A stretch of 64,000 bases of DNA from an uncultured Chlamydiae bacterium (GCA_963696295.1 CAVOJR010000001.1:1184001-1248000), one strand, 5' to 3'; positions 3,001-56,831 are shown, counted from the stretch's first letter. Program-made: numbers and translations. Notes: a model not told the origin generated them from the sequence alone.

Positions 3001-3101
3001 CCATGTCCACTTTAAATTTATCAATTAAGTCTTTTTTAATATCATTTATCAACTCTTTATAATCATCAAGAAGAGTGGTAGTCAATCTTATGTTTTTATT
3101 G

Positions 3102-19775: not shown

Positions 19776-20639
19776 ATGAAAGGCATTATCCTGGCGGGCG
19801 GCAGCGGAACGAGGCTGCATCCCCTCACCTTAAGCATGTCCAAGCAGCTGCTCCCGGTTTATAACAAACCGATGATCTACTACCCCCTCTCCATCCTCCT
19901 GCTCGCCAAAATTAAAGAGATATTGATCATTTCCACCCCGCAGGATCTGCCTCTTTTTCAAAGGCTCCTCGGAGACGGCTCCCAAATCGGCGTCAAGTTC
20001 AGCTATGCCGAGCAAGCTGAGCCGAATGGGATCGCCGAGGCCTTTCTGATCGGCAAAAAATTTATCGGATCTTCCTCCGTCTGCCTGATTTTAGGCGACA
20101 ATATTTTCTACGGCAACCACCTGATCCCTCTCCTGGAGAGCGCAAGGAAGCGGGAAAAAGGGGCGACCCTGTTCGGCTATCACGTCAAGGACCCGCAGCG
20201 CTATGGCGTCGCGAAAGTGGACGGGGCGGGTAAAATTATATCTATCGAGGAAAAGCCGAAAAACCCCGAATCCTCAATCGCCGTCACCGGCCTCTACTTC
20301 TACGATAACGATGTGGTGAATATCGCGCAAAACCTCAAGCCCTCCGCTCGCGGAGAGCTCGAAATCACCGATGTCAATAATGCCTATTTGGCAAGGAAAG
20401 AAGCGTATATCCAGGTGATGGGGCGCGGCTTTACGTGGCTGGACGCCGGCACCTACGCCAGTTTGATGCAGGCCAATCACTTCGTGCAGGTGATTGAGGA
20501 GCGGCAAGGGCAATATATCGCCGCTATTGAAGAGATCGCCTACAACGTGGGTTTTATTTCCAAGGAAGAATTATTGAAATGCAGCCGCGCCATGGGCAAC
20601 AGCCCCTACGGCCAATATCTGGGAGATCTATGCAAATAA
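19776..20639 (+). CDS. rfbA: Glucose-1-phosphate thymidylyltransferase
   Basis: MKGIILAGGSGTRLHP, SKQLLPVYNKPMIYYPL, LGDNIFYG, SARGELEITD. Confidence 0.97.
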   Translation: MKGIILAGGSGTRLHPLTLSMSKQLLPVYNKPMIYYPLSILLLAKIKEILIISTPQDLPLFQRLLGDGSQIGVKFSYAEQAEPNGIAEAFLIGKKFIGSSSVCLILGDNIFYGNHLIPLLESARKREKGATLFGYHVKDPQRYGVAKVDGAGKIISIEEKPKNPESSIAVTGLYFYDNDVVNIAQNLKPSARGELEITDVNNAYLARKEAYIQVMGRGFTWLDAGTYASLMQANHFVQVIEERQGQYIAAIEEIAYNVGFISKEELLKCSRAMGNSPYGQYLGDLCK

Positions 20640-21169
20640 CGGGTTTGAAGCTGGAAGGCTTAAAATTAATTCAGCCGAAAGTATTTAAAGATATCAGAGG
20701 CTATTGCCTCGAATCTTACCGGGCCAGCCTCTACTTTTTAGAGGGGATCTCAGAATCTTTTGTGCAGGATAACCACTCCTTTTCGGTGAAAAACACCCTC
20801 CGGGGCATGCACTTCCAGTCCACCCCAGGCCAAGCCAAGCTGGTCCGCTGCGCCCAGGGAGCGATCTTTGATGTCGCTGTCGATATGCGCCCCGATTCCC
20901 CGACCTTTGGGGAGTGGGAAGGAGTTATTTTAGATAGCGAACAGCACTGCCAGTTATTGATACCGGTCGGCTTTGCCCACGGCTTCTGCGTACTGACGGA
21001 AGGGGCGCATGTGATGTACAAAGTGAGCGCAAATTACGACCCCGCCACGGAAAAGGGATTTCGCTTCGACGATCCCGATATCGGCATCGCGTGGCCGATA
21101 GAAAACCCCCTTTTATCCGAGCGAGATAAAAACAGCCCCTTATTTAAAGAAGTTTTGGAATACGTATGA
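20630..21169 (+). CDS. rfbC: dTDP-4-dehydrorhamnose 3,5-epimerase
   Basis: FVQDNHSFS, LRGMHFQ, QAKLVRC, GFAHGF; start MQITGL at 20630. Confidence 0.96.
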   Translation: MQITGLKLEGLKLIQPKVFKDIRGYCLESYRASLYFLEGISESFVQDNHSFSVKNTLRGMHFQSTPGQAKLVRCAQGAIFDVAVDMRPDSPTFGEWEGVILDSEQHCQLLIPVGFAHGFCVLTEGAHVMYKVSANYDPATEKGFRFDDPDIGIAWPIENPLLSERDKNSPLFKEVLEYV

Positions 21170-22014
21170 GAGTGTGGGTGCCGGGGGCCTCAGGGATGCT
21201 TGGAAAAGAGGTGGCCGGCCAGCTCTCCCTCCAAAATATCGACTATTTAGGCACTGACAAAGCCACGGCGGATATCACAGGCGAAGTGGAAATATTTCTG
21301 CTAAGGGAAAAAATCACCCACATAATCAATTGCGCTGCCTACACAAAAGTCGATCAGGCCGAAACCGACCGGGATGCCGCCTATCGGATCAATGCCGCCG
21401 GCGTACAGAATCTGGGGCGCCTCTCAAAAAAATATCATCTGCCGATCATCCATTTTTCCACCGATTACGTCTTCGACGGCCAGGCCGCAGCTCCTTATGA
21501 GGAGGGGGAAAAGACCAACCCGTTGAACGTTTACGGCCTCACAAAAAGGGCTGGGGAAATCTGCCTTTTGGAAGAAACGCCCCATGCCTGCCTCATCCGC
21601 ACCTCCTGGCTTTTTGGCTTGCAGGGTAAAAACTTTGTGCAAACCATGCTGCGGCTGATGTGCGTCAAAGAGACACTATCCATTGTCTCCGATCAGGTTG
21701 GCCGCCCCACCTTCGCGAAAGACTTAGCCTTTTTTGCCATCAAAATGTTAAATCAAACAGGAATTTACCATTTTGCGAACAGCAATGAAACGAGCTGGTG
21801 GGCCTTTGCCAAAGAGATTCACCGCGCCGGCCTCGCTTTAGGATTTCCCTTTACCGTCAAACAAATAATGCCAATACCCGCCTCAGAATACCCGGCTCCG
21901 GCTAAAAGACCCGCCTACTCGGTTTTGAGCACCGGAAAAATCGAAAAGGAATTCCAATTTAACCCGCGAACATGGCAAAATGCCTTAAATGAGTACCTGC
22001 ATGCGTCACGTTAA
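21166..22014 (+). CDS. rfbD: dTDP-4-dehydrorhamnose reductase
   Basis: GASGMLG, NCAAYTKVD, STDYVFDG, YGLTKRAGE, DQVGRPT. Confidence 0.95.
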   Translation: MRVWVPGASGMLGKEVAGQLSLQNIDYLGTDKATADITGEVEIFLLREKITHIINCAAYTKVDQAETDRDAAYRINAAGVQNLGRLSKKYHLPIIHFSTDYVFDGQAAAPYEEGEKTNPLNVYGLTKRAGEICLLEETPHACLIRTSWLFGLQGKNFVQTMLRLMCVKETLSIVSDQVGRPTFAKDLAFFAIKMLNQTGIYHFANSNETSWWAFAKEIHRAGLALGFPFTVKQIMPIPASEYPAPAKRPAYSVLSTGKIEKEFQFNPRTWQNALNEYLHASR

Positions 22015-22984
22015 AAACATTTTAGTCACCGGAGGAGCCGGCTTCATCGGCTCGGCCTTCATCCGCTACCTCATTAAAAATAATTTTGAGGGGGTCATCG
22101 TTAATTTAGACGCCCTCACCTATGCCGGCAATCTGGAGAATCTGAGAGAGATTGAAGAAGATCCCCGCTACTTTTTTGAAAAGGGGGATATCAGAAATGA
22201 AGCTCTGACAGAACACCTTTGCAAAGAGCATGAAATCGACACGATCATCCACTTCGCCGCCGAAAGCCATGTCGACCGCAGCATTGAGGGCCCTTACGCC
22301 TTCATCGAAACCAATGTCAAAGGCACATATCACCTGTTGGAGGTAGTCAGAAGAAATCCCCATATCCACTTTCACCACGTCTCAACCGATGAAGTGTACG
22401 GCTCTTTAGGACCCTTTGGCAAATTCAATGAAGACTCCCCCTACCGCCCCAACTCCCCCTACTCCGCCTCCAAAGCGGCTTCAGACCATCTGGTAAGAGC
22501 CTACAGCACTACCTACGCCATCTCCACCTGTATTTCCCACTGCAGCAATAATTACGGCCCCTGCCAAAACGCCGAAAAGCTGATCCCTTTGACGATTGGG
22601 CGCTGCCTGGAGAACAAACCGGTCCCCGTCTATGGAAACGGCCTGAATATTCGCGACTGGCTCTTTGTCGATGATCATGTGAAAGCTTTGCATCAGCTGC
22701 TGCTTTATGGAAGAAGCGGAGAAACCTACGCTATCGGCGGGGATCAAGAGTGGAAAAACATCGACCTGGTCAAAGAGATCTTAAAAATGACTGCGAATGT
22801 TTTATCCCTGCCCTCGCTGGAGCATCTGATCACCTTTGTCGCAGACCGGCCCGGCCACGATGCGAGATACGCCATTGACCATCAAAAAATCACTAACGAG
22901 ATCGGCTGGCAACCCGAACACTCCTTTTCCGAAGGGTTGGAGAAAACTATTCTGTGGTACAACCATAAATTGATAAGAACATGA
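22001..22984 (+). CDS. rfbB: dTDP-glucose 4,6-dehydratase
   Basis: TGGAGFIGS, LTYAGN, HFAAESHVDRSI, STDEVYG, PYSASKA, DRPGHD.RY. Confidence 0.96.
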   Translation: MRHVKNILVTGGAGFIGSAFIRYLIKNNFEGVIVNLDALTYAGNLENLREIEEDPRYFFEKGDIRNEALTEHLCKEHEIDTIIHFAAESHVDRSIEGPYAFIETNVKGTYHLLEVVRRNPHIHFHHVSTDEVYGSLGPFGKFNEDSPYRPNSPYSASKAASDHLVRAYSTTYAISTCISHCSNNYGPCQNAEKLIPLTIGRCLENKPVPVYGNGLNIRDWLFVDDHVKALHQLLLYGRSGETYAIGGDQEWKNIDLVKEILKMTANVLSLPSLEHLITFVADRPGHDARYAIDHQKITNEIGWQPEHSFSEGLEKTILWYNHKLIRT

Positions 22985-23751
22985 AAATAATATTAATTGT
23001 CCTTCTTTTGATCTTAACTAAATTAGACGCGGAAAGCAAATTCGTCGTTCTATCCCCGCCAAAATGCGGCACCCATCTGCTTGTCAAAGCCCTTTCCAAC
23101 TTGTTGGATAAGCAGGAAACGACCTGGCTGGGGGATTTGCCGATTAATGCGGTCGAACTCACTGAGCAAATCACCCGGGATGGGGGGTATGCCGTATCGC
23201 ATAACTGGGATCAGAAATCTCTTAAAGATCTGATTCAGAAGGGATATAAAGTCATCTTTATGTTACGGGATCCCAGAGATCACGCCATTTCCGTCCTTAA
23301 CTGGAGCTATTGCCCCAATTGGGGAGGGCCGTTGCATATCTTAAATATCGCCGATCGCGATGAGCGTTTGACGGAACTTATTTGCGGATCCAGGGGAGGA
23401 TGGTGCTGTTTTAATTTCATCAAACTCAGATTGAACCTGCTGAAGAACCTCCCGAAGCAAAGCTTTTATACAGCAAAATTTGAAAACCTGGTTGGTCCAA
23501 AGGGAGGAGGATCCAGAGAAAAACAGATCAAAGAATTGCGCTCATTAAGTAAATTTTTAAACCGTGCGATCAGCGAGGCAAAAATCGAAGAAGTAGCCGA
23601 CTCTCTCTGGGGAAGCTCTCCCACATTTCACATCGGAAAAATTGGCCAATGGAAAAAAGTAATGACACCTTTTCATATTGAAATGTATAAATTTCTATAT
23701 CAGAATCAATTAGAAAAGTTAATGTATGAAACTGATGAAAATTGGGGCTAA
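22981..23751 (+). CDS. Sulfotransferase-domain protein with N-terminal signal sequence
   Basis: PPKCGTHLL (5' PAPS-binding loop), RDPRD..IS (3' PB), GKIGQWK. Confidence 0.8.
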   Translation: MKIILIVLLLILTKLDAESKFVVLSPPKCGTHLLVKALSNLLDKQETTWLGDLPINAVELTEQITRDGGYAVSHNWDQKSLKDLIQKGYKVIFMLRDPRDHAISVLNWSYCPNWGGPLHILNIADRDERLTELICGSRGGWCCFNFIKLRLNLLKNLPKQSFYTAKFENLVGPKGGGSREKQIKELRSLSKFLNRAISEAKIEEVADSLWGSSPTFHIGKIGQWKKVMTPFHIEMYKFLYQNQLEKLMYETDENWG

Positions 23752-31114: not shown

Positions 31115-32038
31115 TTACTTTTTCAAATTATAGAGTTCATCATTGATTTCTACTTGGATCTGATCAATTGTGACTCTCCCATCGTGTTTTGAAAAGTTTT
31201 TAGGATAACAGAAAACTGCATAATCGTGGAGTAAAGAAGGAACGATACTGTAATTCGATTCTCCACGGATAAGAATGTCAAAATTAAAGAGAGAATGAAA
31301 ATCCTCTAAAACATTAGCCCAATGTCTATTGTCTTTTTCCCGATAATTAAAAATAATGGGCGCATAAGGGAGAGCTTGCTGAATTTGATTGACCAGCTCC
31401 CCGGGTTGCAATGCATCCGTGAAGACATGACAATAGATAGATTTATCTTTGAAAAGATCTAAGATAATTTTCAGGCTCTCGATATAAAAAGTAATAGGAG
31501 GGAATTTTAGGGGGTCGCGAAATCCGGCGTCATGAGAATCATATCCTCCACCTTGGCGAATATGGAGGGCCACGCCAAGCATATCTTGAGGAGGATAAGT
31601 TAGAGCCAATTCCTTTTTAGTTGAAATCATTTCCTTGGCAATTTTCCGAAAATTTTGATTTTTCCAGTCAACAGGAAATACATAATAGTAAGGATATTTC
31701 TTTTCACTTTCAACTTCAGGAAAATACTTAGCGATGAAAACGCAATCATGATGTAATTCATGGAAAAGATTTTGTCCAGAATATTGCATATGTCGCAGGT
31801 AAGGATGCCGAGCGGCATCATAATGAATTTCTTTTTCATCCATGACTAGTTCTGTAGAGTAGGGAAATGGCTTATAAAGTAATGGAATCTGATAATGATA
31901 AGAAAGCCATTTAGCATGAAGATAGGCAATCAGATTATCTCCAAAGCGCCCGCCGGTAAAATCGTAAGTGACAGCAGCCGGGTTCGCGTTAAGATTTCCC
32001 CAAAAAAGTAAACATATAAAAAAATATCGTAAAAGCAT
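31115..32038 (-). CDS. Divergent fucosyltransferase-like protein (GT11/GT23 clan) with signal peptide
   Basis: GGRFGDNL, VALHIRQGG, FTD, SNYS; N-terminus MLLRYFFICLLFWGNLNA. Confidence 0.6.
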   Translation of the reverse strand: MLLRYFFICLLFWGNLNANPAAVTYDFTGGRFGDNLIAYLHAKWLSYHYQIPLLYKPFPYSTELVMDEKEIHYDAARHPYLRHMQYSGQNLFHELHHDCVFIAKYFPEVESEKKYPYYYVFPVDWKNQNFRKIAKEMISTKKELALTYPPQDMLGVALHIRQGGGYDSHDAGFRDPLKFPPITFYIESLKIILDLFKDKSIYCHVFTDALQPGELVNQIQQALPYAPIIFNYREKDNRHWANVLEDFHSLFNFDILIRGESNYSIVPSLLHDYAVFCYPKNFSKHDGRVTIDQIQVEINDELYNLKK

Positions 32039-32054
32039 ATCTCATTCCCATTTG

Positions 32055-32711
32055 TTAATTCATAAGAATCTGTCGAAGCTTTTGATGAATAAATTCATTG
32101 CATTCAGGATTGATGTGGACATTATGATCACTCAAATCAACGATTAAGCTGCCATCCTCATTGGCATAATCATCATATACATCAAGAAAAGCAATCCCCT
32201 TTTGGCTGCAAACATCTGCTAATTTGGCATTCAACTGCTTAGCAATAGATATCCGCTCCTCTAACGGCCCATAACGAGGAACATTTGGGTTATAAACATA
32301 ATCAGTTGGCGGGGTAACTGAATATACAATGCAAGACAAATTGTGGTATAGCTCGCGATTTAATAAAATGGTCTTGATATAATGGTGGACCAAAGTATCG
32401 ATAATTTCATAGACGGTACGATTGAAGCGATCTCTCTGCTTTCCAATATGACACCGCACATCAATTTCTCCAAATGCAAAAACCACCGCCTGCCCTTCCT
32501 TGACACCTAAGTTTTGCAAATTAAGAAATGATAACCCATCACGTCCAATGCGATGCATGGTACAAGAGCCTATTTGATGCACCCTGCAATTTGGAATCCG
32601 AGCAAACTCTCCCGCATGACTGTCACCAACAACAAAGATGGGGGGTAGAGAGTCCTCCGCAGCGTTAACTGTGATAAATAAGGAGCAGAGAATGAATAAA
32701 AAGATTTGCAT
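32055..32711 (-). CDS. SGNH/GDSL hydrolase-family protein with signal peptide
   Basis: GDSH, FGEIDVRCH, D..H (DHNVH); MQIFLFILCSLFITVNA. Confidence 0.75.
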   Translation of the reverse strand: MQIFLFILCSLFITVNAAEDSLPPIFVVGDSHAGEFARIPNCRVHQIGSCTMHRIGRDGLSFLNLQNLGVKEGQAVVFAFGEIDVRCHIGKQRDRFNRTVYEIIDTLVHHYIKTILLNRELYHNLSCIVYSVTPPTDYVYNPNVPRYGPLEERISIAKQLNAKLADVCSQKGIAFLDVYDDYANEDGSLIVDLSDHNVHINPECNEFIHQKLRQILMN

Positions 32712-32810
32712 ATGACCAACCTGTATTTAAAGACAATTATTCAAATTCTTCTTTTAAAATCAAGTCTGTTGATGTATATTGATCAGAATATGAAAAAATA
32801 AGGAATTTCT

Positions 32811-33746
32811 ATGAGAAAATCTCTGTTACTCTTAACTTTTTATTGCGCCTCTTTGTATGGAGAGGTCATTGATATCATATCGACATTTACCTTTGACCTG
32901 CCTGTCAATTATTCCGCAATCAACGCTGCCGGTTTTGATATACAAGGACATGCTGACATCAAAAAATATGAAAATTTATTAGTGTCGCCTTACCCTCCGA
33001 CTCCGTACAAAGTCATTGTCTGGAATCATGTCTTAGGAGGTGGTTCCCCCATTTTCAAGTTGCCTAAAGAAAAACTGATATTTTTTCTATGGGAGCCCTG
33101 GGGTTTATCATCCGGTTATTATGCGTTATATTCCAAAATTTTTACATGGGACGATAGCTTAGTGGATAATAAAAAATATTTCAAATTTTATTACCCATTC
33201 TTAATGCCTATGATCTCAGATCTTCCCTTATTTGAAGACAAAGAATTTTGCACAATGGTTGCATCCAATATGACCAAAGAGCGTATTCAGATCATTAACT
33301 TTTTTGAAACCAAACCGGCGGGAGAATTTGTGTTCTATGGAGTTAAGCCCTATCACAGCAAAATGTACCGTGGCTCCATTCCAGGAGATCCTGCAAGCAT
33401 TGAAAAAATTTCCACCCTTAAAAAATATCGCTTTTGTATTTGCTTTGAAAATACTACATACTTGCAGGGTTATATCACAGAAAAGATTTTTGCCTGTTTT
33501 GCAGCAGGCTGTGTTCCAATCTATTGGGGAGCTACAAATGTCGAAAAATACATTCCAAAATCCTGCTACATCGATTATCGCGACTTTTCAACTCTGGAAG
33601 ACCTCTATCAGTATCTTAAAGGGATGGACAAAGAGACGCATGCGCAATATATTCAGAACATACTTGCTTTTCTTGAAAGCGAAAATGCAAAATTGTTCTC
33701 TCCAGCCTACTTTGAACAAGTGATTTATGAGGCAATTACCGAGTAG
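32811..33746 (+). CDS. Glycosyltransferase family 10 (alpha-1,3/4-fucosyltransferase-like) with signal peptide
   Basis: KYRFCICFENT..GYITEKIF..F.AGCVPIYWGA motif. Confidence 0.9.
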   Translation: MRKSLLLLTFYCASLYGEVIDIISTFTFDLPVNYSAINAAGFDIQGHADIKKYENLLVSPYPPTPYKVIVWNHVLGGGSPIFKLPKEKLIFFLWEPWGLSSGYYALYSKIFTWDDSLVDNKKYFKFYYPFLMPMISDLPLFEDKEFCTMVASNMTKERIQIINFFETKPAGEFVFYGVKPYHSKMYRGSIPGDPASIEKISTLKKYRFCICFENTTYLQGYITEKIFACFAAGCVPIYWGATNVEKYIPKSCYIDYRDFSTLEDLYQYLKGMDKETHAQYIQNILAFLESENAKLFSPAYFEQVIYEAITE

Positions 33747-34584
33747 ACCAAAATGATTTATTCAACTTAATAATTGGGATATCTGGATTAAAAAAAGAAG
33801 CACACAAACTAAGATTGGAATCTGTCCTTATTAATAAATCGGTTTTTGAAAGTAAAATACAATCAATAAGCGCTTCCTCACCGCATTGATAATGATTACG
33901 TTGAGGATTATGATGCACGGATAAATGGTTAGTGGAACGAGCGGCATCATGATAACATACCAGCCCTGGAAACTGAAATGATAACCAATCTACAAAAGAA
34001 ACTTCATCTGTAGCCAGAAATATTCTGTATTCTTTATCTTGTAACTTGCTGATTTGAAAATTGATAGCAGTTAAAATCTCTTCATATGCAACTCGAGGGG
34101 CTTCTATCATTTTATCGGTTCCTCGATAATGTACACCAATAATGAAATTGTCTTGAAAATTATCTCTAACAAACGATGCTACTTTATCATTGATATGAGA
34201 TTTCACATGTATATATTTATTTATTAGATTGTAATTGTAACTTCGAGAATTACAATATTCTATTTTCCAACTATCATGATAGTAAGTAGTAATAATATTG
34301 GCTGAATCATGGGTTCCTAAAAAAATAGGCTCAAAATAATATTCCCACCAGTTTTTTCCATGTAATGGATCAAAATAGGCTCCCTCACAATCAAAATCAA
34401 CTGCCATTCCCTGAATTAAATGGTTATCATAAGATTGAAGAACCGCAAGCACATCTTGAAAAATACTAAACATCCCATCGGGTCTGCTTTTCACAATGAT
34501 AAATTCAGCACAATCTGCCTTGTAAAGAGAAAAGCATAAACATATCAATAAAATTTTTCTTGAAATTTTTATAAAAAAAGACAT
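33736..34584 (-). CDS. NodZ-like (GT23) fucosyltransferase with signal peptide
   Basis: GMFS, NWWEYYFEP, GVHYRGTDK, FLATDE, ALIDCILLSK, SNLS. Confidence 0.8.
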   Translation of the reverse strand: MSFFIKISRKILLICLCFSLYKADCAEFIIVKSRPDGMFSIFQDVLAVLQSYDNHLIQGMAVDFDCEGAYFDPLHGKNWWEYYFEPIFLGTHDSANIITTYYHDSWKIEYCNSRSYNYNLINKYIHVKSHINDKVASFVRDNFQDNFIIGVHYRGTDKMIEAPRVAYEEILTAINFQISKLQDKEYRIFLATDEVSFVDWLSFQFPGLVCYHDAARSTNHLSVHHNPQRNHYQCGEEALIDCILLSKTDLLIRTDSNLSLCASFFNPDIPIIKLNKSFWSTR

Positions 34585-34597
34585 TCGTTTACCTGAC

Positions 34598-35443
34598 TTA
34601 TTTTACTAAAATGACAGGCAGTGCTGGATTGAAATAGGTAGCACACAAGCCCATGTTAGAACTGGTCCGAACAAGGTAATCGCATTTGGTCAACAATAAG
34701 CAGTCGACAAGGGCATCTTCACCTTTTTTGTATGGATTCAATTTTTTATTCAAATGCACCGCTTGGCTATCCATAGAGCGGTATGCTCCTTGATAGAATG
34801 TTGTGCAGTTGGGAAATTGTGCTTCCATGTATGCTAGAAAAGGCTGTTCATCAGTTGCTATGAATAGCATATATCCGCCTTCCCATAATTCTAATTCTGC
34901 AATAACTGAGCGGACAACCGAGGCAATTTTATCATAACTCACTCGTGGTACTTCAGAATTTTTATCTGTGCCTCTATAATGGATGCCAATCATAAAATTG
35001 CTAAATTGCTCATCGGTAATAGCTTGAACCTTTTCCAAAATGTGATGCTTAACCTTCACATATTTACAAATTAGTTCATGACATCTTTCCTTAGATGTAT
35101 GATGCTCGATAAACCATGGGAGAACATTTGGGATTTGATAGATTTCTTCAATGCGGGCATTTTCAGGTGAACCAACATCAAGAGGTTCAAAATAATAATT
35201 CCACCAATTCGGTCCATAAGCTTCGTCGTAATAAACACCATGCTCTCCAAATTCAAACCTTAATCCGGCTATCGAATCTTGGTGTTCATCATATGTCCTA
35301 ATATTTCCCAGCATGGTTTTTAAAATATTAAACATCCCCTCCCCTTCAGATCCCAGAACAATATAATAGGGTTTTAATGGTTCTGCATTAAGCCTAAAGA
35401 AGAGCTGAATCACCAAAATAAAAATGAAAGATAAGGTGCGCAA
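34598..35443 (-). CDS. NodZ-like (GT23) fucosyltransferase paralog with signal peptide
   Basis: GMFN, NWWNYYFEP, GIHYRGTDK, FIATDE, ALVDCLLLTKC, SSNMG. Confidence 0.8.
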   Translation of the reverse strand: MRTLSFIFILVIQLFFRLNAEPLKPYYIVLGSEGEGMFNILKTMLGNIRTYDEHQDSIAGLRFEFGEHGVYYDEAYGPNWWNYYFEPLDVGSPENARIEEIYQIPNVLPWFIEHHTSKERCHELICKYVKVKHHILEKVQAITDEQFSNFMIGIHYRGTDKNSEVPRVSYDKIASVVRSVIAELELWEGGYMLFIATDEQPFLAYMEAQFPNCTTFYQGAYRSMDSQAVHLNKKLNPYKKGEDALVDCLLLTKCDYLVRTSSNMGLCATYFNPALPVILVK

Positions 35444-35771
35444 AACAACTCCTTCTCAGTTTCTAATCTTCTTACTTATCAAAATGTCTTATTTTTCTGC
35501 AACAGCATTGTTAAATGGTTCATCTCTTTGCAATGAAAGTACTGGACAAAAAGTACTCTATTGCTATTAATTAGTGTTAAAAAAAAAGTAAAGGAGCCAC
35601 TTCATTTTGATTTCAATGACAAAATATTCCTTTTCCGGGTGGACAAAATCAGACAAGAAAGAGATTGCTCCACAATATTGGATGCAAACAGACTCCTATG
35701 CGTATCCCACTTCACATCCAAATGCCTTTTATTTAAATAACCATTGAAGATAACTTACTTGGAGATAAACC

Positions 35772-36488
35772 ATGATCAAAAAATGCTTTTTATATTTTGC
35801 GATGCTTTTGACACCGTTAACAATTTCCTCAGATGAACCCCCAGAAATCATTGATTTCAATTCGACATGGACGCATGGCTATCAATCCATGTATGACGAT
35901 CCCACATGGTACCTAGGACATTATGGTTTCAACTACGCCCCTGAATTTACTGCTTATTTTTCCATGCTCAAGAATAAGTATCACATCGATACTGTGATTG
36001 AAACAGGCACATTTATGGGCTCGACAGCAGTCTGCTTTTCTCTTTTATTCGACCATGTCTATACCATTGAAATCGTCGACTCGACTTACCGCAAAACAAA
36101 AGAATATCTGGATCAATTTTCAAATATCCAATTCTATCTAGGAAGCTCAGACAAAGTTTTAAAGGACATATTGCCCTTAGTGCAACACAAACCAGTCCTG
36201 TTTTATTTAGATGCACACTGGTTTGATCATTGGCCTTTATTAGCTGAACTCGAAGAGATTTGCAAAACACATCAAGATAACTGTGTCATTGTGATTGATG
36301 ACTTTAAAGTCCCTGGACGGCCAGAAATTCCTTATGATAGATATGGATCTCAAGAATGTTCCTATGAGTATATCAAACCTAGACTTGATGAAATTTTTTC
36401 GGGATATACGATCCATTATCTTATTCCCAAAAGGATCGATTCCCGGGCAAAATTTGTGGCAATCCCAACAAATTGGGAAAAAAAATAA
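35772..36488 (+). CDS. Class I SAM-dependent methyltransferase-like protein with signal peptide
   Basis: IETGTFMG, YTIEI, GSS, FYLDAH, IVIDD; GGAG RBS. Confidence 0.75.
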   Translation: MIKKCFLYFAMLLTPLTISSDEPPEIIDFNSTWTHGYQSMYDDPTWYLGHYGFNYAPEFTAYFSMLKNKYHIDTVIETGTFMGSTAVCFSLLFDHVYTIEIVDSTYRKTKEYLDQFSNIQFYLGSSDKVLKDILPLVQHKPVLFYLDAHWFDHWPLLAELEEICKTHQDNCVIVIDDFKVPGRPEIPYDRYGSQECSYEYIKPRLDEIFSGYTIHYLIPKRIDSRAKFVAIPTNWEKK

Positions 36489-36563
36489 AGCTAATTGGAA
36501 TTCTTTGACAGAGGATCAAAGAGGTGGCTCAGCTTTTTCGCATTTAAAAATGAAGCCTATTCT

Positions 36564-37496
36564 TTAGTATTTTAAAATTATCCAGTCCGCGGGGACAACA
36601 TCTTTTGAATTTAACCCTGCACTATCGTTAAACCAAACAGGAGGTGTTATAATGATTTTATGGGGATTGGGATTCAGGTATGCCGCCCACCATGAAAAAC
36701 TCGAATGACAAATGATATTATGTTTGCACATGCTCATTAAGTACAGGTCATGATAGTGTTCCTCGCCTTCGACAAAGTACATATTGCGAGGAATATCAGC
36801 AAGTTCCTTTTTACATAAATTCATATCATTAGAAAAAACTATAAATAGAGTGTCTGCAGGAAATAATGACATTGCCTTTTCAAAATAGCATTTCCCATAA
36901 AAAGGATATATGCGCTGCGCTGGATCAAAGTCAAGGTAAGATCTCATATGGACTGATACTGTGTTGGGACAATTCAACAAGTCACCATATTTTTTTTGAA
37001 GGTACTCAGTAATTTCGGGATGTGGCTTAAAAAGTTCTATTATTTCCTTTTTGTGATGTTGAAAGTATTTTTCAGACTGAAAATAACCAGCTATGCACAT
37101 ATTTGGACTATAAGGTATCGGCGCATAGTGGTAATGAGGTTCTTTGTAACGAACGGATATATGCTTATTCTGCGGCATAAAAGGGTTTAAATGATAAAAT
37201 ACTTTCTGATAATTTAAAGGTATATTATCCACAGTTTTATTAACTAGATCTGGAAAAATAGGATCAGAGTCGTGATCAAGAGCTAAACTTACGGTTGCCG
37301 CAATGACGAACATTTGATTTCCTAGTTGTCCAGTTAACTCCCCTACCACGAAAGAATTCAGTGCAAAGGCGGTGTTAAAAACGCTAAAGCAGTAAATCAA
37401 AATTATTGTAATTTTACCAATATAGTAATTTTGAAAAATAACCCGCGAAAAATGGAATAAAAATAGGTAATTCATATCACTGTCAAATTTCATCAT
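36564..37496 (-). CDS. Alpha-1,2-fucosyltransferase (GT11); true start probably later
   Basis: GQLGNQMF, GYFQSEKYF, SVHMR, FSND, DLYLMSMCKHNIICHSSFSWWAAYLN. Confidence 0.9.
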   Translation of the reverse strand: MMKFDSDMNYLFLFHFSRVIFQNYYIGKITIILIYCFSVFNTAFALNSFVVGELTGQLGNQMFVIAATVSLALDHDSDPIFPDLVNKTVDNIPLNYQKVFYHLNPFMPQNKHISVRYKEPHYHYAPIPYSPNMCIAGYFQSEKYFQHHKKEIIELFKPHPEITEYLQKKYGDLLNCPNTVSVHMRSYLDFDPAQRIYPFYGKCYFEKAMSLFPADTLFIVFSNDMNLCKKELADIPRNMYFVEGEEHYHDLYLMSMCKHNIICHSSFSWWAAYLNPNPHKIIITPPVWFNDSAGLNSKDVVPADWIILKY

Positions 37497-37777
37497 AACA
37501 TCTTAAATTTTTAAAAAATTGCCAGTACCTGTCGAGAATAGCATCGCAGACTCTTCAAATGTTTGTCAGATATTGCTCATTAAAAGTTGTTCCAATAACC
37601 AATAAAATATATTCATAAAAATAACGCAACTGATTTTGATCTTGCTCGCCCTCAAAAATAAAATCTAAAATTTAGGTTTTCTTAAATTTCTTGGTTTGAT
37701 AGAGTCTGTTTTGTTAACTCTTCCAAAAAATAAATAGGCAATATTGTTGCTTCTAAAAAATAGCCTAGGAGAAAGTT

Positions 37778-38644
37778 ATGCGAGAAAAAAAATTTCAATC
37801 CCTTTTTTTCTACCTTTTCCTATTATTTTTTTGTTCGTTACCAGGCTTTCTAAAAGGTTATGACAATCAATTAGCTGTGTGCACAATCTTTAAAGATAAT
37901 GCCGAGTATTTTAAAGAATGGATTGAATTTCACATGTTGGTTGGTGTAGAGCACTTTTATCTTTATGACAATTCCAGCACAGATAATTCACTTGAAATAC
38001 TCGACCCTTATATTCAACAAGGTATTGTCACAGTAATCGATTGGCCGAATAAAGGGGGTTACTGGGTGCACTCAACTCAAGAGGCAGCTTATAATCATTG
38101 TGGAAGGTTAGCATCAGGAAAGACAAAATGGGTGGCGGCCATTGATACCGATGAGTTTCTATTTTGCGAAGACATTGAAAATATTCCCGATTTTTTACAA
38201 CAGCATGATGATGAAGCTGCCATTTTCGTTTGGTGGAGAGTTTATGGAACATCCGGCGTACTTGATATTCCTCCGGGTTACTTGATGATTGAGCTTCTCT
38301 ATAAAAGATTTCCTGATAATCACGATCGAAATAAACAAGGAAAATTAATTTTTAAACCTGAAGAATTATTAGAATTTGATTGGGCGGGCCATCGATGCAA
38401 GTTAAAGAATAATGCGATTACTTATGTATCAAAAGTGACAGATATTCGAATTAATCATTATGTTAATCGAACGATTAACTTCTTTCTTAAGCAAAAGAAG
38501 CAACAAAAGGAAGCAATGGATAACCGCAATTATAGTGATGAACAATGGCTAAGTCATTTAAATGATGGCAACGACATAGAGGATCGAATAATGGATCGAT
38601 TCATTCCAGTTTTGCGAAAGAGAATGGGTTTTTCCAACGACTAA
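37778..38644 (+). CDS. Glycosyltransferase family 92-like protein with signal/anchor
   Basis: LAVCTIFKD.AEYFKEWIEFH..VGVEHFYLYDN.STD, IDTDEF (DxD), RINHY. Confidence 0.85.
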   Translation: MREKKFQSLFFYLFLLFFCSLPGFLKGYDNQLAVCTIFKDNAEYFKEWIEFHMLVGVEHFYLYDNSSTDNSLEILDPYIQQGIVTVIDWPNKGGYWVHSTQEAAYNHCGRLASGKTKWVAAIDTDEFLFCEDIENIPDFLQQHDDEAAIFVWWRVYGTSGVLDIPPGYLMIELLYKRFPDNHDRNKQGKLIFKPEELLEFDWAGHRCKLKNNAITYVSKVTDIRINHYVNRTINFFLKQKKQQKEAMDNRNYSDEQWLSHLNDGNDIEDRIMDRFIPVLRKRMGFSND

Positions 38645-38759
38645 ACAACAAAATTTTTATTCTTAATAAAAATAAGATTATTACACTATATCCTCATTTT
38701 ATGATAAACTTATGAGTATAAATATTTAGACCACAAAAAAAACTTCGTTTGGAGACATT

Positions 38760-39593
38760 ATGCACAATCGTTTTTGGCTTTTTATATTAGTTGGATTACT
38801 TATAATGAATAATGCAACATGCTCACATCAAAGCATAACAGGGAATCACTCAAGTTACATTGAAGCATGTCGTAAAGCTGTAAATGATCCTCTCTATTTT
38901 CAAAATTTTCGTTCTACCCATGAATATGCGTCAAATGTAGAGTGTTATGGGTTTGGAAACGAGTTTGCTCAATATCTTCTTACAAATGCTTCTCCACAAA
39001 CCTTAGAAAAGTTGGAGCAATTTAGAAGGCTTGATCAGTATGGCAATCCTTTAACAAAGGACATTGAGGGGGTAGGGAGATTTTCAGAAACAACTTTGAG
39101 GTATATTATAGTCGCAGATCAAATAAAAGAGTTGTTTAACTTGCCCAGTAATCCCAAAATAGTAGAGATAGGGGCCGGATTTGGGGGACAATGCTATATT
39201 TTATCACAAATCCAAATTTTTTCAGATTATTTTATTTACGATCTTCCAGATGTTGAGAATTTAATAGAAAAAATGTTAAAAACTCTTTCAATTGAAAGAG
39301 TGTCTCTTATACCTCAATATGTACCACTTCCTGAGAGTAATGTTGATTTGTTAATTAGCAACTATGCATTTTCTGAATGTGACAGACAAACTCAACTAGA
39401 CTACTTTGAAAGAGTTTTGAAGAAAGCTGATAGAGGTTATATGCTTTTTAATCAGCTTCACGTTTTTGACTCATTATCACTAGCCGAGTTTGTAAAATTA
39501 TTAGAAGATAATAATATGAAACCTCAACTATATGAAGAACCAGTTTTAACTTATAAGGATAATGTATTGGTCACCTGGGATAAAACTAATTGA
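38760..39593 (+). CDS. Putative sugar O-methyltransferase with signal peptide
   Basis: TTLRY, IVEIGAGFGGQ, YDLP, ISNYAFSEC. Confidence 0.8.
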   Translation: MHNRFWLFILVGLLIMNNATCSHQSITGNHSSYIEACRKAVNDPLYFQNFRSTHEYASNVECYGFGNEFAQYLLTNASPQTLEKLEQFRRLDQYGNPLTKDIEGVGRFSETTLRYIIVADQIKELFNLPSNPKIVEIGAGFGGQCYILSQIQIFSDYFIYDLPDVENLIEKMLKTLSIERVSLIPQYVPLPESNVDLLISNYAFSECDRQTQLDYFERVLKKADRGYMLFNQLHVFDSLSLAEFVKLLEDNNMKPQLYEEPVLTYKDNVLVTWDKTN

Positions 39594-39709
39594 TGAGAAG
39601 AATCTCACTGGAGTTACAATCTAGCAATCGTTATGGCAGCAAAAACTCTGTTCATACATTTGGGCCCCATTTCCAATTATGATTTTAACTGTTTATAAGG
39701 AGCAATTTT

Positions 39710-40477
39710 ATGAAACTGGTGGTTTTTAGTTTTCTATTTTTCACGACAACTCTATTTTCAATCCCTCCTCGGGATATACCTCCTGAGCATAGAGACGCTT
39801 TTACGATGAATGGTCAAATTCCTGTTGATTATTGGTATATTGATGGGACTTATTCCAGCGATCAACCTGTTGTTTTTTCAAAGGATATGGTGGATAACCT
39901 TGTTAAAAAGGCTAAAGCAAAGAAAGTATGGTACTACGGTCATACTGATACATGGCTTTATAAAGCTATCGAAACCTATGTCGGTGATTTTCAAGGAAAA
40001 ACCGTAGGTATTATAGGAAGCGTAACAGCCTGGTATGAAGCAATTATATTAGCCTATAATGGCAAGCCAGTGACAATAGAGTATAACAAGATCATCACTG
40101 ACCATCCTGGGATTCAAGTAATGACCGTTGAAGAATACAAGAAAAACCCAATTACTTTTGATTACCTCCTTTCTGTCTCATCAATTGAGCATGATGGTCT
40201 TGGACGTTATGGTGACCCAATTAATCCATTTGGTGATATTGAAACCATGCAAGAATTAACAGGTTGGTTAAAAGAAGAGGGACTGTTTTTTCTCTCTATG
40301 CCTGTAGGAAAGGATTTACTTGTTTGGAACGCACATCGCATTTATGGACTGATTCGTTTACCAATGCTTCTTCAGTCTTGGGAGGTAGTAGGGAGTGTTG
40401 GTCATTCAGAGAAACATTTTTTAGTGAGCGATGCCTCGCATCAACCTGTCTTTGTTCTGAAACTTCCTAAAAAATAG
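39710..40477 (+). CDS. DUF268-like methyltransferase-fold protein with signal peptide
   Basis: GS..AWYE, TIEYN, SSIEHDGLGRYGDPINPFGD, PVGKD..WNAHRIYG.IRLP. Confidence 0.8.
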   Translation: MKLVVFSFLFFTTTLFSIPPRDIPPEHRDAFTMNGQIPVDYWYIDGTYSSDQPVVFSKDMVDNLVKKAKAKKVWYYGHTDTWLYKAIETYVGDFQGKTVGIIGSVTAWYEAIILAYNGKPVTIEYNKIITDHPGIQVMTVEEYKKNPITFDYLLSVSSIEHDGLGRYGDPINPFGDIETMQELTGWLKEEGLFFLSMPVGKDLLVWNAHRIYGLIRLPMLLQSWEVVGSVGHSEKHFLVSDASHQPVFVLKLPKK

Positions 40478-40635: not shown

Positions 40636-40914
40636 ATGAAAGACCGTACCTGGGTGGATTTCCTGGAAATGTGTTCCAAAATCCAAGACGCTAAGAAGCT
40701 GGATCGATTTTTTGATCTGTTTTTGACCATAGAGGAGCGGGAAACCGTGGCCTCCCGGAGCGTCATTATTAAGGCGCTGCTTGAGGGAAAACTGACGCAG
40801 CGGGAGATGGCTGAAAAATATAAGGTCAGCATCGCTCAAATTACAAGGGGATCGAATGCCCTGAAAATCATCGATCCGGAATTTAAACTGTTCCTGGAAC
40901 AACTATTTAAGTGA
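40636..40914 (+). CDS. trpR: Tryptophan operon repressor
   Basis: [36 protein letters not shown]. Confidence 0.95.
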
Positions 40915-42059
40915 AGGCTATGGAAAAAGGAAGCGCCCTGGGGGCCACATTATTAATCACGGGGTGCTGCATCGGAGCGGGCATGATCGGCTTGCCGGTG
41001 GTGAGCGCCATGGCGGGTTTCATCCCCTCCACTTTAGCCATGCTCCTTTGCTATGGCTTTGCGACCGGAACCGGCTTGCTGATTCTGGAAGCGACCTTAT
41101 GGTTCGATCAGCGAGTCAATCTCATCTCAATGGCCGACTTTGCCCTGGGAAGAGCCGGCAAAGCGCTCACCTGGTTCCTCTTTCTCTTTCTTTTCTACTG
41201 CCTGTTCGTCGCCTACATAGACGGGGGCGGACAATTGTTTGCCAAGTTCTTCTCCGTCCCAAGGGAGATCGGGGTGCTGATGTGCGTTAGTTTCGTCGGC
41301 GCGGTGGTTTATGGTGGAACGAGAGCGGTCAGCGGCGTCTGCCGGCTGCTGCTCTTCGGCTCGGCCCTCTCCTACCTCGCCATGCTCTCTTTGGGCCTGC
41401 CGCATGTCCAGGGGCAGCGGCTGCTCTATGCCGATTGGAGCGCAACCCTGGCCACTTTGCCTATCTTGCTGGTCTGTTTCGGATACCAAAATCTGATCCC
41501 GACTCTGACCTACTACACGCAGAAAAACATCAAGGCGCTCCGCACGGCGATTTTTGTCGGGAACCTGATCCCTTTTCTCATTTATTTCCTCTGGAATTTC
41601 GTCATTCTGGGTCTGCTCCCTCAGGGAATTGCCTGCGAGAGCCATATGGTGACAGGGCTGCTCGAAAAGGCCTCCGAATCGGAGTCAGTCCTTTTCTTCG
41701 CGATAGCCTTTTCCTTCTGCGCTATTTTGACTCCCTTCATCGCCAACACGCTCACTTTTGTCGATTTTCTCAAAGACGGCCTAAAAACCTCCAAGGAGCT
41801 GGCCATTTATGGCCTAGTCCTGATCCCGCCGACGCTGCTAACCCTCTTCTACCCCAATCTCTTTTTGAAAGCTCTTGGCATCGCGGGGGGATTTGCCGAT
41901 GTGATTTTATTCGGCCTCCTGCCGGTATCGATCGTGTGGATCGGCCGCTATCATAAAAACGCGAAAGGGCCTTTCACGGCACCGGGGGGAAAACTCTTTT
42001 TGATCATCGTCCTCCTCTTTTCCCTGGGCTTTCTTTTTATAAGGAGTCCGCTATGTTAA
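40911..42059 (+). CDS. Aromatic amino acid permease (TyrP/Mtr/TnaB, HAAAP family)
   Basis: [36 protein letters not shown]; ~11 TM segments. Confidence 0.9.
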
Positions 42060-43036
42060 AACTGCTGATGGAAAAGCCCTCCTTGACGCGGGATGAAGCG
42101 GAATCGGCTATGACGACAATTTTGGAAGAGGCCGACCCGCATCAGACGGCTGCTTTTCTCGCCATTTTAAAGTACCGGGGCGAAACGCCGGCAGAGATCG
42201 CGGGGATGGCAGCGGCTTTGCAAAAAAAAGCGGTGCCCGTGAATCTCCCTCAGCCCACTTTAGACATTGTCGGCACGGGGGGCGATATGGCCAATACGGT
42301 CAATATTTCCACCGGCTCCGCCCTCCTGGCTGCCGCCTGCGGCATCCCGGTGGCAAAGCATGGCAACCGCTCCGCTTCGAGCCGAAGCGGCTCCGCCGAT
42401 GTCCTGGAAGCCTTAGGGGTTAAAATTGAGATCCCGCCGGAACAATTGGGGCGCTGTCTTGAGGAAATGAGCCTCGCTTTTATGTTTGCTCCCGCTTATC
42501 ACCCTGCCTTAAAAAAAATGGCGCCGATCAGAAAAGGGCTTAAATACCCAACCGTTTTTAATATTTTGGGCCCGCTGCTTAATCCGGCGAGGTCGGAGTA
42601 TGCATTAATTGGCGTGGCGAGCGAGCCTGTCCTGGAGCGGATGAGCGAGGTCATTTTACAGATGGGGGATAAAAAAAGGGTCCTCCTTTTTCACGGGTGC
42701 GGCCTGGATGAATTGACGCCTCTTGGAAAAATGATAGCCTACGACATCAAAGGAGGGCAAAGGAGACGCTTCGAGATTGACCCGGAGTCCTTGGGTTTTT
42801 CCCTCTGCACCCTGAAGGAGCTGCAAGGGGGAGACGCAAAAGCAAACGCGGCTATTTTGAGCGAGGTTTTTGCCGGCGGCCAGGGGGCCGTGGCCGACGC
42901 TCTGATTTTTAACGCCGGAGCCGCCGTCTGGATTTTCGGCGCGGCCCCCACTTTAAATGAGGGCATTCAAAAGGCGCGCCAAGTCCAGCAGGAGGGAGGA
43001 GCGCTCAAAATTCTGGAAAAATGGAGGGCCCTATGA
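42053..43036 (+). CDS. trpD: Anthranilate phosphoribosyltransferase
   Basis: DIVGTGGD..NTVNIST, AKHGNRSASSRSGSADVLEALG, FNILGPLLNP, GLDE. Confidence 0.96.
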   Translation: MLKLLMEKPSLTRDEAESAMTTILEEADPHQTAAFLAILKYRGETPAEIAGMAAALQKKAVPVNLPQPTLDIVGTGGDMANTVNISTGSALLAAACGIPVAKHGNRSASSRSGSADVLEALGVKIEIPPEQLGRCLEEMSLAFMFAPAYHPALKKMAPIRKGLKYPTVFNILGPLLNPARSEYALIGVASEPVLERMSEVILQMGDKKRVLLFHGCGLDELTPLGKMIAYDIKGGQRRRFEIDPESLGFSLCTLKELQGGDAKANAAILSEVFAGGQGAVADALIFNAGAAVWIFGAAPTLNEGIQKARQVQQEGGALKILEKWRAL

Positions 43037-55895: not shown

Positions 55896-56831
55896 TCACA
55901 TATCCGTCGATTGAGGAAGCTCAACAGCTTCTTCCCTATAACTCTCTTTCAATTCTTCAAAATAAAAGATAAAAAGGCCACAAAAAACAACGACGAACGA
56001 CAAATAGAATGAAATTCCGATCGACTCTCCGAGAAAGGACCAGCCGAATATCGCAGCGAAAATCGGAGTGGTCAAACCGGCAAAGGACATAAAAGTCGCG
56101 GAGAATCTCTTCAAAAGATAGCCATACAGGTTATAGCAGATCAAATTGGAAACCACTATCAGCAAAAGAGCGCACTCAAAAAAGGGGAGAAAGCCGACAA
56201 CGGGAATCGGATCCCAATTTTCGACCAGGCCCGAATGGATCAAAGCGATGACCCCGCCTACCGCCATGCTCATCCCGTTTGCCATAATGGGGGAATTTCC
56301 CTGCTCATTCACACATTGCCTGAGGAGAATCCAGCCATACACACTGCAGAGGACGGCGCAGATCATCGACAGCTCCGGCCAGGAAAACATAAAGAGATGG
56401 CCTACAGAACTTTCCGTTTCGGTCTGGCTGAGCAATATAGGGAACATGCCAATAAATCCGATAAGCAAACCGGCCCATTTTTTTAACGTGAGGATTTCGG
56501 AGAAAATAAAATAAGAAAACAGGGCTGATAAAAATGGGGACAAACTGTAGATAAAACAGGTTTTAAAAGAAGTTAAGTACTTTAAAGCCCAGAATTCGAA
56601 CATATTAGTCAAATAAATATTAAAAATAGCCAGAAGAAAGAGGCGCCACGCCATTTTCCCGTTAAAAACCACCTTCTCTTTTCGGATAAAAAACTGGAAA
56701 GCCAGCATCAAAATACCGGCGAGGAGCATGCGCGATCCGACAAAGAAGAAGGGCTCGGTATGGCCAAGGCCGATTTTGGCTATGGTGAATACGCTGGCAA
56801 AAAGGGCATAGAGTAATACGACTAAAAACAT
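55896..56831 (-). CDS. DMT/EamA family transporter
   Basis: 10 TM segments; RMLLAG, SLSPF, GLLIGFIG, P.FAAIFGWSFLGE. Confidence 0.88.
   Translation of the reverse strand: MFLVVLLYALFASVFTIAKIGLGHTEPFFFVGSRMLLAGILMLAFQFFIRKEKVVFNGKMAWRLFLLAIFNIYLTNMFEFWALKYLTSFKTCFIYSLSPFLSALFSYFIFSEILTLKKWAGLLIGFIGMFPILLSQTETESSVGHLFMFSWPELSMICAVLCSVYGWILLRQCVNEQGNSPIMANGMSMAVGGVIALIHSGLVENWDPIPVVGFLPFFECALLLIVVSNLICYNLYGYLLKRFSATFMSFAGLTTPIFAAIFGWSFLGESIGISFYLSFVVVFCGLFIFYFEELKESYREEAVELPQSTDM

Follow-up and report, generated by a model that had tools for sequence, protein, structure and literature searches.

Why should an intracellular bacterium attach export signals to enzymes that depend on nucleotide-activated donors? 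The question is raised by a 64,000-nucleotide stretch from an uncultured Chlamydiae bacterium (GCA_963696295.1 CAVOJR010000001.1:1184001-1248000; 'the window' denotes this whole stretch), in which positions 31115..40477 hold an island of ten genes for glycan-building and glycan-decorating enzymes. Textbook extracytoplasmic glycosylation in bacteria uses lipid-linked donors, because the periplasm is generally considered to hold no nucleotide sugars, S-adenosylmethionine (SAM) or NADPH. Our analysis makes it probable that the island enzymes belong to a Sec-exported glycan-building line of soluble proteins, located in the periplasm or inclusion lumen and fed by host nucleotides.

The ten open reading frames (ORFs) lie in mixed orientation between pgeF (PF02578) and trpR (PF01371), and all are open and full length. 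Their GC content is 35.5%, against 47.1% for the chromosome. The island is the lowest-GC 9.4-kb stretch of the whole chromosome, and the second lowest, near C1:1826000, is another gene cluster of the same kind. Coordinates, orientations and GC content agree with an earlier note on this DNA, which had described an AT-rich block of ten glycan-type genes at this site. The genome comprises 3.43 Mb in two contigs and is 97.4% complete. Because it encodes four NTT nucleotide carriers and the named relatives of the island proteins are Chlamydiota, its source is read as an intracellular environmental chlamydia living as an energy parasite.

Leaders were detected with a rule of our own making, which asks for a hydrophobic 9-mer within the first 14 residues and a non-negative n-region. 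The rule flags nine of the ten island genes, the exception being the GT11 gene as annotated. Genome-wide, 404 of 2457 ORFs are flagged (16%; signal and no later membrane helix), and only one run of ten genes reaches nine flagged members. Nine in ten corresponds to p = 7e-7 at the genome rate and to p = 3e-4 at the rate of the lowest-GC genes (38/116). Among the window proteins, the rule flags four of the six listed as exported and three of the 33 listed as cytoplasmic, one of the latter being a sulfotransferase of the same leader-bearing class. It passes 36 of 1917 internal positions (1.9%) and 426 of 10000 shuffled versions of the island proteins (4.3%). AT-richness as the source of the leaders is ruled out by these shuffles and internal-start controls, together with the contrast to viral homologues given below. 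At eight of the ten island starts, a purine-rich ribosome-binding site was recognised by eye.

The leaders stand ahead of the first strand of each domain and consist of a basic start, an uncharged run with a median of 12-13 residues, and small residues at positions -3 and -1. An uncharged run of at least 19 residues occurs in one of 194 flagged homologues. Membrane anchors were rejected because the runs are too short, and the leaders look like cleavable Sec peptides rather than Golgi-type anchors. In 36564-37496, an intact leader of the form K-hydrophobic-AFA ends at residue 45 with no ATG, GTG or TTG just before it, and the candidate starts are an ATG at codon 8 and an ATT at codon 26. Hence, the short hydrophobic signal-like N-terminus described in the earlier note is present on each protein (nine by rule, the GT11 protein with an uncertain start), but the anchor-like N-termini and anchored Golgi topology that it proposed had to be given up. 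Its argument that export is unusual because donors are cytoplasmic does not apply to the SGNH-like protein, which needs no nucleotide donor and whose leader is therefore ordinary.

Features of the island and related genes in the window, with profile evidence and predicted leaders
Feature	Position	Strand	Profile match or remark	Leader
FUT8/POFUT/NodZ-fold fucosyltransferase-clan protein (predicted)	31115..32038	-	no Pfam model	predicted Sec leader, 1-18
SGNH-like esterase or O-acetyltransferase	32055..32711	-	PF13472, E 5e-7, below cut-off	predicted, 1-17
GT10 alpha-1,3/4-fucosyltransferase-like	32811..33746	+	PF00852 over cut-off	predicted, 1-17
GT23/NodZ alpha-1,6-fucosyltransferase-like	33736..34584	-	PF05830 over cut-off	predicted, ~26 residues
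Second GT23/NodZ-like paralogue, TTG start	34598..35443	-	PF05830, E 7e-4, below cut-off	predicted, 1-20
Class I SAM-dependent methyltransferase-like	35772..36488	+	PF13578 (Methyltransf_24), E 0.012, weak	predicted, ~20 residues
GT11 alpha-1,2-fucosyltransferase-like	36564..37496	-	PF01531 over cut-off	ends at residue 45, start uncertain
GT92 (GT-A) glycosyltransferase, likely galactosyltransferase	37778..38644	+	PF01697 over cut-off	predicted, ~27 residues
NanM-type putative sugar O-methyltransferase	38760..39593	+	TIGR04371 over cut-off	predicted, ~21 residues
DUF268 protein	39710..40477	+	PF03269 over cut-off	predicted, 1-17
rmlA-C-D-B dTDP-rhamnose genes	19776..22984	+	cytoplasmic counterpart, internal control	none
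Sulfotransferase outside the island	22981..23751	+	PF00685; four paralogues, all flagged	flagged, same kind
EamA/DMT carrier, likely orthologue of the chlamydial SAM/S-adenosylhomocysteine (SAH) antiporter	55896..56831	-	two EamA domains; two genes from metK	

The profile searches uphold the earlier assignments to GT10, GT11, the NodZ/GT23 pair, GT92 and DUF268. In contrast, the GT11/23-like label once given to 31115-32038 was not sustained, as this protein matches no family profile in Pfam or NCBIfam and no PDB sequence, and was placed in neither GT11 nor GT23. Its predicted structure (pLDDT 95, from an alignment of 106 of the 120 listed homologues) gave FUT8 and POFUT1 as top Foldseek matches (best E 8e-7, TM score about 0.5), and H159, R161, T207, D208, D246 and S261 are invariant in the 106 aligned homologues. 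The model places the protein in the FUT8/POFUT/NodZ fold clan, a predicted variant of the GT-B fold with HxR and TD motifs; the family, of which 301 relatives were found, is unclassified.

The GT10 protein scores 66 bits against PF00852 (cut-off 23.9), and its FENT..GYITEK motif aligns with that of H. pylori FucT (2nzw). In 33736-34584, the motifs HYRGTDK, FLATDE and ALIDCILL align with NodZ (2hhc) and FUT8 (2de0), and its neighbour 34598-35443 matches it with E 1e-64. Both thus carry the HxR, xTD and DxxLL motifs of NodZ and FUT8, and only the former passes the Pfam cut-off. Judged from these alignments, the catalytic and donor-binding motifs of the GT10 and GT23 proteins are intact. The GT11 protein (PF01531, 89 bits) has its GxLGNQ start motif at residue 55. 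Its donor-motif region reads HMRSYLD, in which the His and the first Arg are retained and the remainder is changed relative to the HxRRxD consensus; a GT11 paralogue at C1:1037497 has a normal leader. Searches of the PDB sequences with the GT11 protein and with the 31115-32038 alignment gave no match.

The GT92 protein (PF01697, 103 bits) contains DTDE, and the DxDE motif is present in 114 of its 120 homologues. The NanM-type protein scores 56.6 bits against TIGR04371 (cut-off 44) and has a glycine-rich SAM motif, GAGFGG, at residue 138, while 35772-36488 contains an ETGTFMG motif and has Atlas matches that include clusters of putative methyltransferases and of rhamnosyl O-methyltransferases. 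The DUF268 protein (PF03269, 106 bits), which we take to be a methyltransferase, belongs to a family found in seven of 150 genomes of the phylum; five of the six others were flagged for a leader, and no viral relatives were confirmed. The SGNH-like protein scores 30.8 bits against a cut-off of 32.9 and has a GDSH motif at residue 29; its nearest Atlas clusters are mostly viral hypothetical proteins.

Leaders are also found in homologues of these proteins. They were flagged in 97 of 120 homologues of the GT10 protein, 97 of the 120 listed for 31115-32038 and 101 of 120 for the GT92 protein, as well as in five of seven homologues of 35772-36488 and all three of the NanM-type protein at cellular loci. 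In the 80 best GT10 genome loci (Chlamydiota, two Dependentiae and several loosely labelled), 70 of 84 GT10 ORFs were flagged, whereas only three of 84 were flagged in the 80 best viral loci. A Dependentiae contig (L116) encodes two GT10 proteins and an FkbM methyltransferase that all bear leaders, which extends the trait to a second phylum of intracellular bacteria. In a GT11 tree (FastTree only; 135 domains, from 131 of 150 hits plus four rows), the island protein belongs to a clade (support 99) with 64 flagged rows out of 75; another 13 rows are flagged elsewhere in the tree, and none of these shows a leader on inspection. Three GT11 proteins from other bacteria start 5-11 residues before the first motif and have no leader, and a fourth that was fetched did not match the pattern. 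The GT10 clade occurs in 104 of 300 genomes of the phylum, and in none of the 29 in the family with 1.0-1.3-Mb genomes, taken as Chlamydiaceae. The homologue surveys and the GT11 tree indicate that the closest homologues are not ordinary cytoplasmic lipopolysaccharide (LPS) enzymes; the opposite finding would, according to the earlier note, have spoken against export. They support the leaders as a real and lineage-specific trait.

A literature search by title and start of abstract, with most subscription papers and all supplements outside its scope, returned no paper on this trait. Papers are cited here by PMC number. The available text on PaGT6 of Parachlamydia describes an active glycosyltransferase and mentions no signal peptide (PMC3516806), and that on Babela reports many signal-peptide proteins with type II secretion only and leaves glycosyltransferases unmentioned (PMC4378268).

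Such enzymes occur throughout the genome, and the island is where they are most concentrated. In total, at least 66 glycan proteins in the genome bear leaders, comprising 40 glycosyltransferase-like, 11 sulfotransferase-like and 11 methyltransferase-like proteins, one pyruvyltransferase and three nucleotide-sugar enzymes. The glycosyltransferases represent families GT2, 4, 10, 11, 23, 25, 32, 34, 47/RXYLT1, 71, 90 and 92. This tally is a floor, obtained from 32 regions chosen by eye, in which 92 of 137 flagged proteins were scanned (469 are flagged genome-wide), and from paralogue searches; some of the 66 assignments are below cut-off or by paralogy. The self-contained island of the earlier note therefore dissolves into genes spread over the chromosome, which relatives group in varying combinations. 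A conserved island was rejected, as the same 80 cellular GT10 loci include GT11 in eight, GT92 in nine, the NanM type in three, the NodZ type in two, DUF268 in one and an SGNH homologue in none. By eye, the site upstream of pgeF contains no such genes in three relatives (G030, G028, G019), and in a fourth (G001) the contig ends there. Nor is the island marked as a mobile element: a profile search found no mobility gene among the ten ORFs, neither a nearby tRNA nor terminal repeats were seen, and low GC alone is present.

Three donor types for leader-bearing enzymes, GDP-fucose, GDP-mannose and 3'-phosphoadenosine-5'-phosphosulfate (PAPS), have no visible source in the genome. Profile searches of the whole genome gave no gmd, fcl, manC or fkp over cut-off, the only strong NTP-transferase was RmlA, and adenosine-5'-phosphosulfate kinase was not found. 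The absence of gmd and fcl from the window, as previously noted, thus extends to the whole genome. The search for transporters proposed alongside it yielded a likely SAM/SAH antiporter (see the table) but no dedicated nucleotide-sugar carriers. This antiporter is one of only three EamA genes in the genome; it matches nucleotide-sugar transporter families weakly, and each of three genomes from the same order, 1.1 Mb in size, has a single match to it at 38-40% identity, the range reported for SAM/SAH antiporter homologues (PMC3104491). The window also encodes metK and a UDP-sugar pyrophosphorylase.

Elsewhere in the phylum, gmd occurs in 118 of 300 genomes. In the 30 best gmd loci, 21 of 32 Gmd proteins bear a leader, and an adjoining Fcl-like gene, recognised by motif and position, has the same leader state as Gmd in 14 of 14 loci. 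At these loci (L205-L234), most leader-bearing Gmd proteins read ALIFG at the first strand and leaderless ones ALITG or ALISG, and two loci have tandem copies. A quick Gmd tree clusters leader state (three changes versus nine in shuffles); as it has no outgroup, it does not show a single origin of the leader. Co-occurrence of the GT10 clade with gmd was set aside as weak (48/56/70/126, p 0.08, kin not independent). UDP-rhamnose was considered as a donor of the fucosyltransferase-clan proteins because the genome has a leader-bearing UDP-rhamnose route; it is not favoured, since these proteins keep the motifs that bind GDP in NodZ/FUT8 and FucT.

Donor-making and nucleotide-salvage enzymes bear the same leaders as the island enzymes, which the earlier note had overlooked. 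GalE occurs as twins, one with a leader (C1:1604287) and one without (C1:1840073). A leader-bearing UDP-glucose 4,6-dehydratase and a plant-type epimerase/reductase (C1:1280016-1282010, L025:5017-7011; E 7e-112 to 4qqr) form a two-gene UDP-rhamnose route of plant and giant-virus type, which coexists with the leaderless rml operon and whose second gene needs NADPH. A tandem ndk pair (C1:481263-482222) has a leader on the second gene only, as in Waddlia, and uridine kinase, adenine phosphoribosyltransferase and both Adk homologues carry leaders. Leaders were seen on the adjacent uridine kinase and nucleoside monophosphate kinase at L018:3093-4483 and on the adenine phosphoribosyltransferase at L044:12904-13542, a possible exported nucleotide salvage route. 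A housekeeping-type adk (C1:187004-187738, minus strand; relatives' loci L235-L242, L246 and L249) has a Sec-type leader. In ten of 27 relatives, the Adk leader is real by eye, and at the cleavage site of seven of these ten there is a further ribosome-binding site with a start, which suggests that one gene may give exported and cytoplasmic forms.

How could a glycan-building line outside the cytoplasm be fed? Sec would carry the enzymes across the inner membrane, with cleavage of the leaders. Chlamydiae import host nucleotides and SAM through inner-membrane carriers, as described for SAM in C. trachomatis (PMC3104491). Because these carriers sit in the inner membrane, host nucleotides and SAM would have to cross the inclusion lumen and the periplasm, which they would enter through wide porins en route to the NTT and SAM carriers; PomS exemplifies such porins, being wide and selective for anions (PMC3561449). 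The exported transferases could there draw on GDP-fucose, UDP-glucose, PAPS and SAM of the host, and exported GalE and UDP-rhamnose enzymes could convert host UDP-glucose into UDP-galactose and UDP-rhamnose. A precedent is Waddlia Ndk2, a nucleotide enzyme with a signal peptide that exits the bacterial cell (PMC13318545, PMC7143554).

The island alone could add fucose in several linkages, hexose by GT92, O-methyl and perhaps acetyl groups. Its targets would be the bacterium's own exported proteins or surface, with leader-bearing collagen-like proteins rich in threonine triplets as candidate acceptors. Two such proteins (C1:1019338-1024017 and C1:2564994-2570372) are very long, with about 300 triplets, mostly Gly-Ala-Thr, and have leaders. 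The gene at C1:2564994 adjoins a leader-bearing GT2 gene, and that at C1:1019338 lies about 10 kb from a GT25/GT10/GT11 cluster. Because of the export signals and the lack of a route to the likely fucose donor, decorated sugar chains are likely built outside the cytoplasm from host-made blocks. A wider claim, which we regard as evenly balanced, credits environmental Chlamydiota and some Dependentiae with a second metabolic compartment, situated outside the cytoplasm and fuelled by the host. In this bacterial analogue of the Golgi, exported enzymes would salvage nucleotides and make nucleotide sugars (the latter by Gmd, Fcl, GalE and the UDP-rhamnose enzymes), and a variable glycan coat would be assembled by dozens of soluble transferases, namely Leloir glycosyltransferases and sulfo-, methyl- and pyruvyltransferases.

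Several observations weigh against a host-fed line. We know of no demonstration of NADPH, GDP-fucose or PAPS in any chlamydial periplasm or inclusion. Of the 104 GT10-clade genomes, 56 gave no gmd hit and 48 have their own gmd, so that host GDP-fucose is not a general need. Both adenylate kinases of the genome bear leaders although a cytoplasmic Adk should be essential, and a ribosome-binding-site pattern search found none at this genome's internal Adk Met. Collagen-like genes occur in only six of the 80 cellular GT10 loci. The start of the GT11 gene is odd, and its protein reads SYLD where RGDY is usual. Leader counts carry a few per cent noise because the rule misfires on hydrophobic first strands (five of 15 Adk calls), and to the 13 false flags outside the GT11 clade at least one inside it must be added. 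Finally, experiments in heterologous systems placed Waddlia Ndk2 at the nucleus and Golgi of the host, a localisation more in keeping with an effector role, and its authors consider that the leader may be retained (PMC13318545).

The strongest competing explanation, which we consider unlikely though worth serious attention, is that the enzymes are effectors: after export by Sec, they would reach the host cytosol or secretory pathway through type II secretion or in vesicles and alter host glycans there. The genome has a type II secretion-like cluster at C1:1336252-1344635 (the pseudopilin motif was tested, the other genes were assigned from size and order), and CPAF takes this route (PMC6717882). 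Moreover, of 19 Waddlia proteins detected in host cytosol, 13 carried signal peptides; leakage is possible in this list, because it also includes the periplasmic proteins Skp, HtrA and Mip and the leaderless Ndk1 (PMC7143554). Nematode and amoebozoan N-glycans are reported to occur in fucosylated, galactosylated and methylated form. The host cytosol holds every donor, NADPH included, but for the same reason GalE, Adk, Ndk, Gmd and Fcl would be largely redundant there. The cytosol would not need such enzymes supplied and a separate compartment would, which counts for a line in the periplasm or inclusion lumen. In addition, about 65 enzymes with many linkage types resemble a build line for a new glycan rather than single-target editing, and host glycans are assembled in Golgi lumina, which are hard for a cytosolic protein to enter.

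It is improbable that the enzymes work in the periplasm on donors made in the bacterial cytoplasm and exported by inner-membrane carriers. Such self-feeding may well hold for SAM, given metK and the likely SAM/SAH antiporter, and the UDP-sugar pyrophosphorylase and the weak carrier match to nucleotide-sugar transporters point the same way. However, the missing synthesis of GDP-fucose, GDP-mannose and PAPS argues against it, and none of the three EamA genes has been shown to encode a nucleotide-sugar carrier.

We find it quite improbable that the leaders do not export at all. In that case they would hold otherwise ordinary LPS or capsule enzymes at the cytoplasmic side of the membrane, or translation would begin at internal starts and skip them. 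AT-rich genes do yield hydrophobic sequence, and many relatives' Adk genes have the second start described above. Nevertheless, the positive n-region, the 12-13-residue hydrophobic run and the small -3/-1 residues match those of the genome's porins, TolB, ZnuA and Skp-like protein, only 4% of shuffles pass the rule, and in 31115, 32055 and 32811 no usable start codon separates the leader from the first strand. In addition, the genome maintains a distinct LPS/O-antigen set that is leaderless, and its cytoplasm could not supply GDP-fucose. Least of all do we expect exported proteins that transfer nothing, as glycan or nucleotide binders or decaying cargo of a recently gained island, for which one might cite the low GC content, the mixed gene orientations, a patchy distribution, the odd start of the GT11 gene and the missing donor pathway, since the ten frames are open and full length and the donor-binding motifs are invariant or nearly so over 48 to 120 homologues.

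Some further features were recorded. A further AT-rich block occupies positions 1-5000 of the window and includes a DDE transposase (3125-4015), and 18154-18702 and 18910-19446 are two near-identical low-GC lipoprotein-like ORFs with no Pfam match. A continuous run at 40636-47473 comprises trpR, a tryptophan permease, trpD, trpC, trpF, trpB, trpA and kynureninase, which together appear to form a route for salvaging kynurenine/anthranilate to make tryptophan. A phytochelatin synthase-like protein with a leader is encoded at L018:14642-15562.

If the proposed line is real, a phylum that exports nucleotide-dependent transferases together with their donor-making enzymes would break the rule of lipid-linked donors, and the chlamydial periplasm or inclusion would be rich in nucleotides, comparable to the mitochondrial intermembrane space or the Golgi. 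The results make the surface chemistry of environmental chlamydiae directly testable, provide glycoengineering with soluble, single-domain members of Golgi-type enzyme families, and add an unclassified family of predicted fucosyltransferase fold (31115-32038).

Among known systems, the eukaryotic endoplasmic reticulum and Golgi (FUT8, POFUT, FUT9, GT92) share with the chlamydial enzymes their folds, donor types and catalytic domains predicted to lie beyond a membrane, and also house sulfotransferases, methyltransferases and some interconversion enzymes alongside them. Unlike the Golgi, the chlamydial set has no type II anchor or stem and no dedicated nucleotide-sugar carriers that we could find, and its sequences are nearest to bacterial and viral homologues. 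Furthermore, Gmd and Fcl, which are cytosolic in eukaryotes, carry leaders in the relatives. The predicted arrangement would work like a Golgi glycosylation line, although its parts are not membrane proteins of the Golgi type. Among the bacterial fucosyltransferases of the cytoplasm (H. pylori FucT 2nzw, rhizobial NodZ 2hhc, polysaccharide-locus GT11), FucT and NodZ have catalytic motifs that are conserved in the island's GT10 and GT23 proteins. In contrast, these cytoplasmic enzymes start at the catalytic domain, as checked for three GT11 proteins, and depend on their own GDP-fucose supply.

Giant viruses possess clustered and variable kits with a two-enzyme UDP-rhamnose route, pyruvyltransferase and methyltransferases, as described for Mimivirus (R141/L780; PMC10117803), and build their own coat from host precursors, as is proposed here for the chlamydia. 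Their homologues have no leaders (three of 84 GT10 ORFs flagged), whereas the chlamydial kit must cross a bacterial membrane. Waddlia Ndk2 is similar as a normally cytoplasmic nucleotide enzyme that was duplicated and gained a signal peptide, with the same ndk pair in this genome; it differs in not being a glycan enzyme, and its localisation upon heterologous expression points to host compartments. The nearest tested case is GlgA of C. trachomatis, which synthesises glycogen inside the inclusion lumen; its donor is UDP-glucose of the host, brought in by SLC35D2 (PMC4829429). GlgA is a chlamydial nucleotide-sugar-dependent transferase that works outside the cytoplasm on a host donor, as predicted here for the island enzymes. 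It represents one pathway that uses type III secretion, has no signal peptide and makes a storage glucan, whereas the present genome has tens of families of decorating enzymes with Sec-type leaders.

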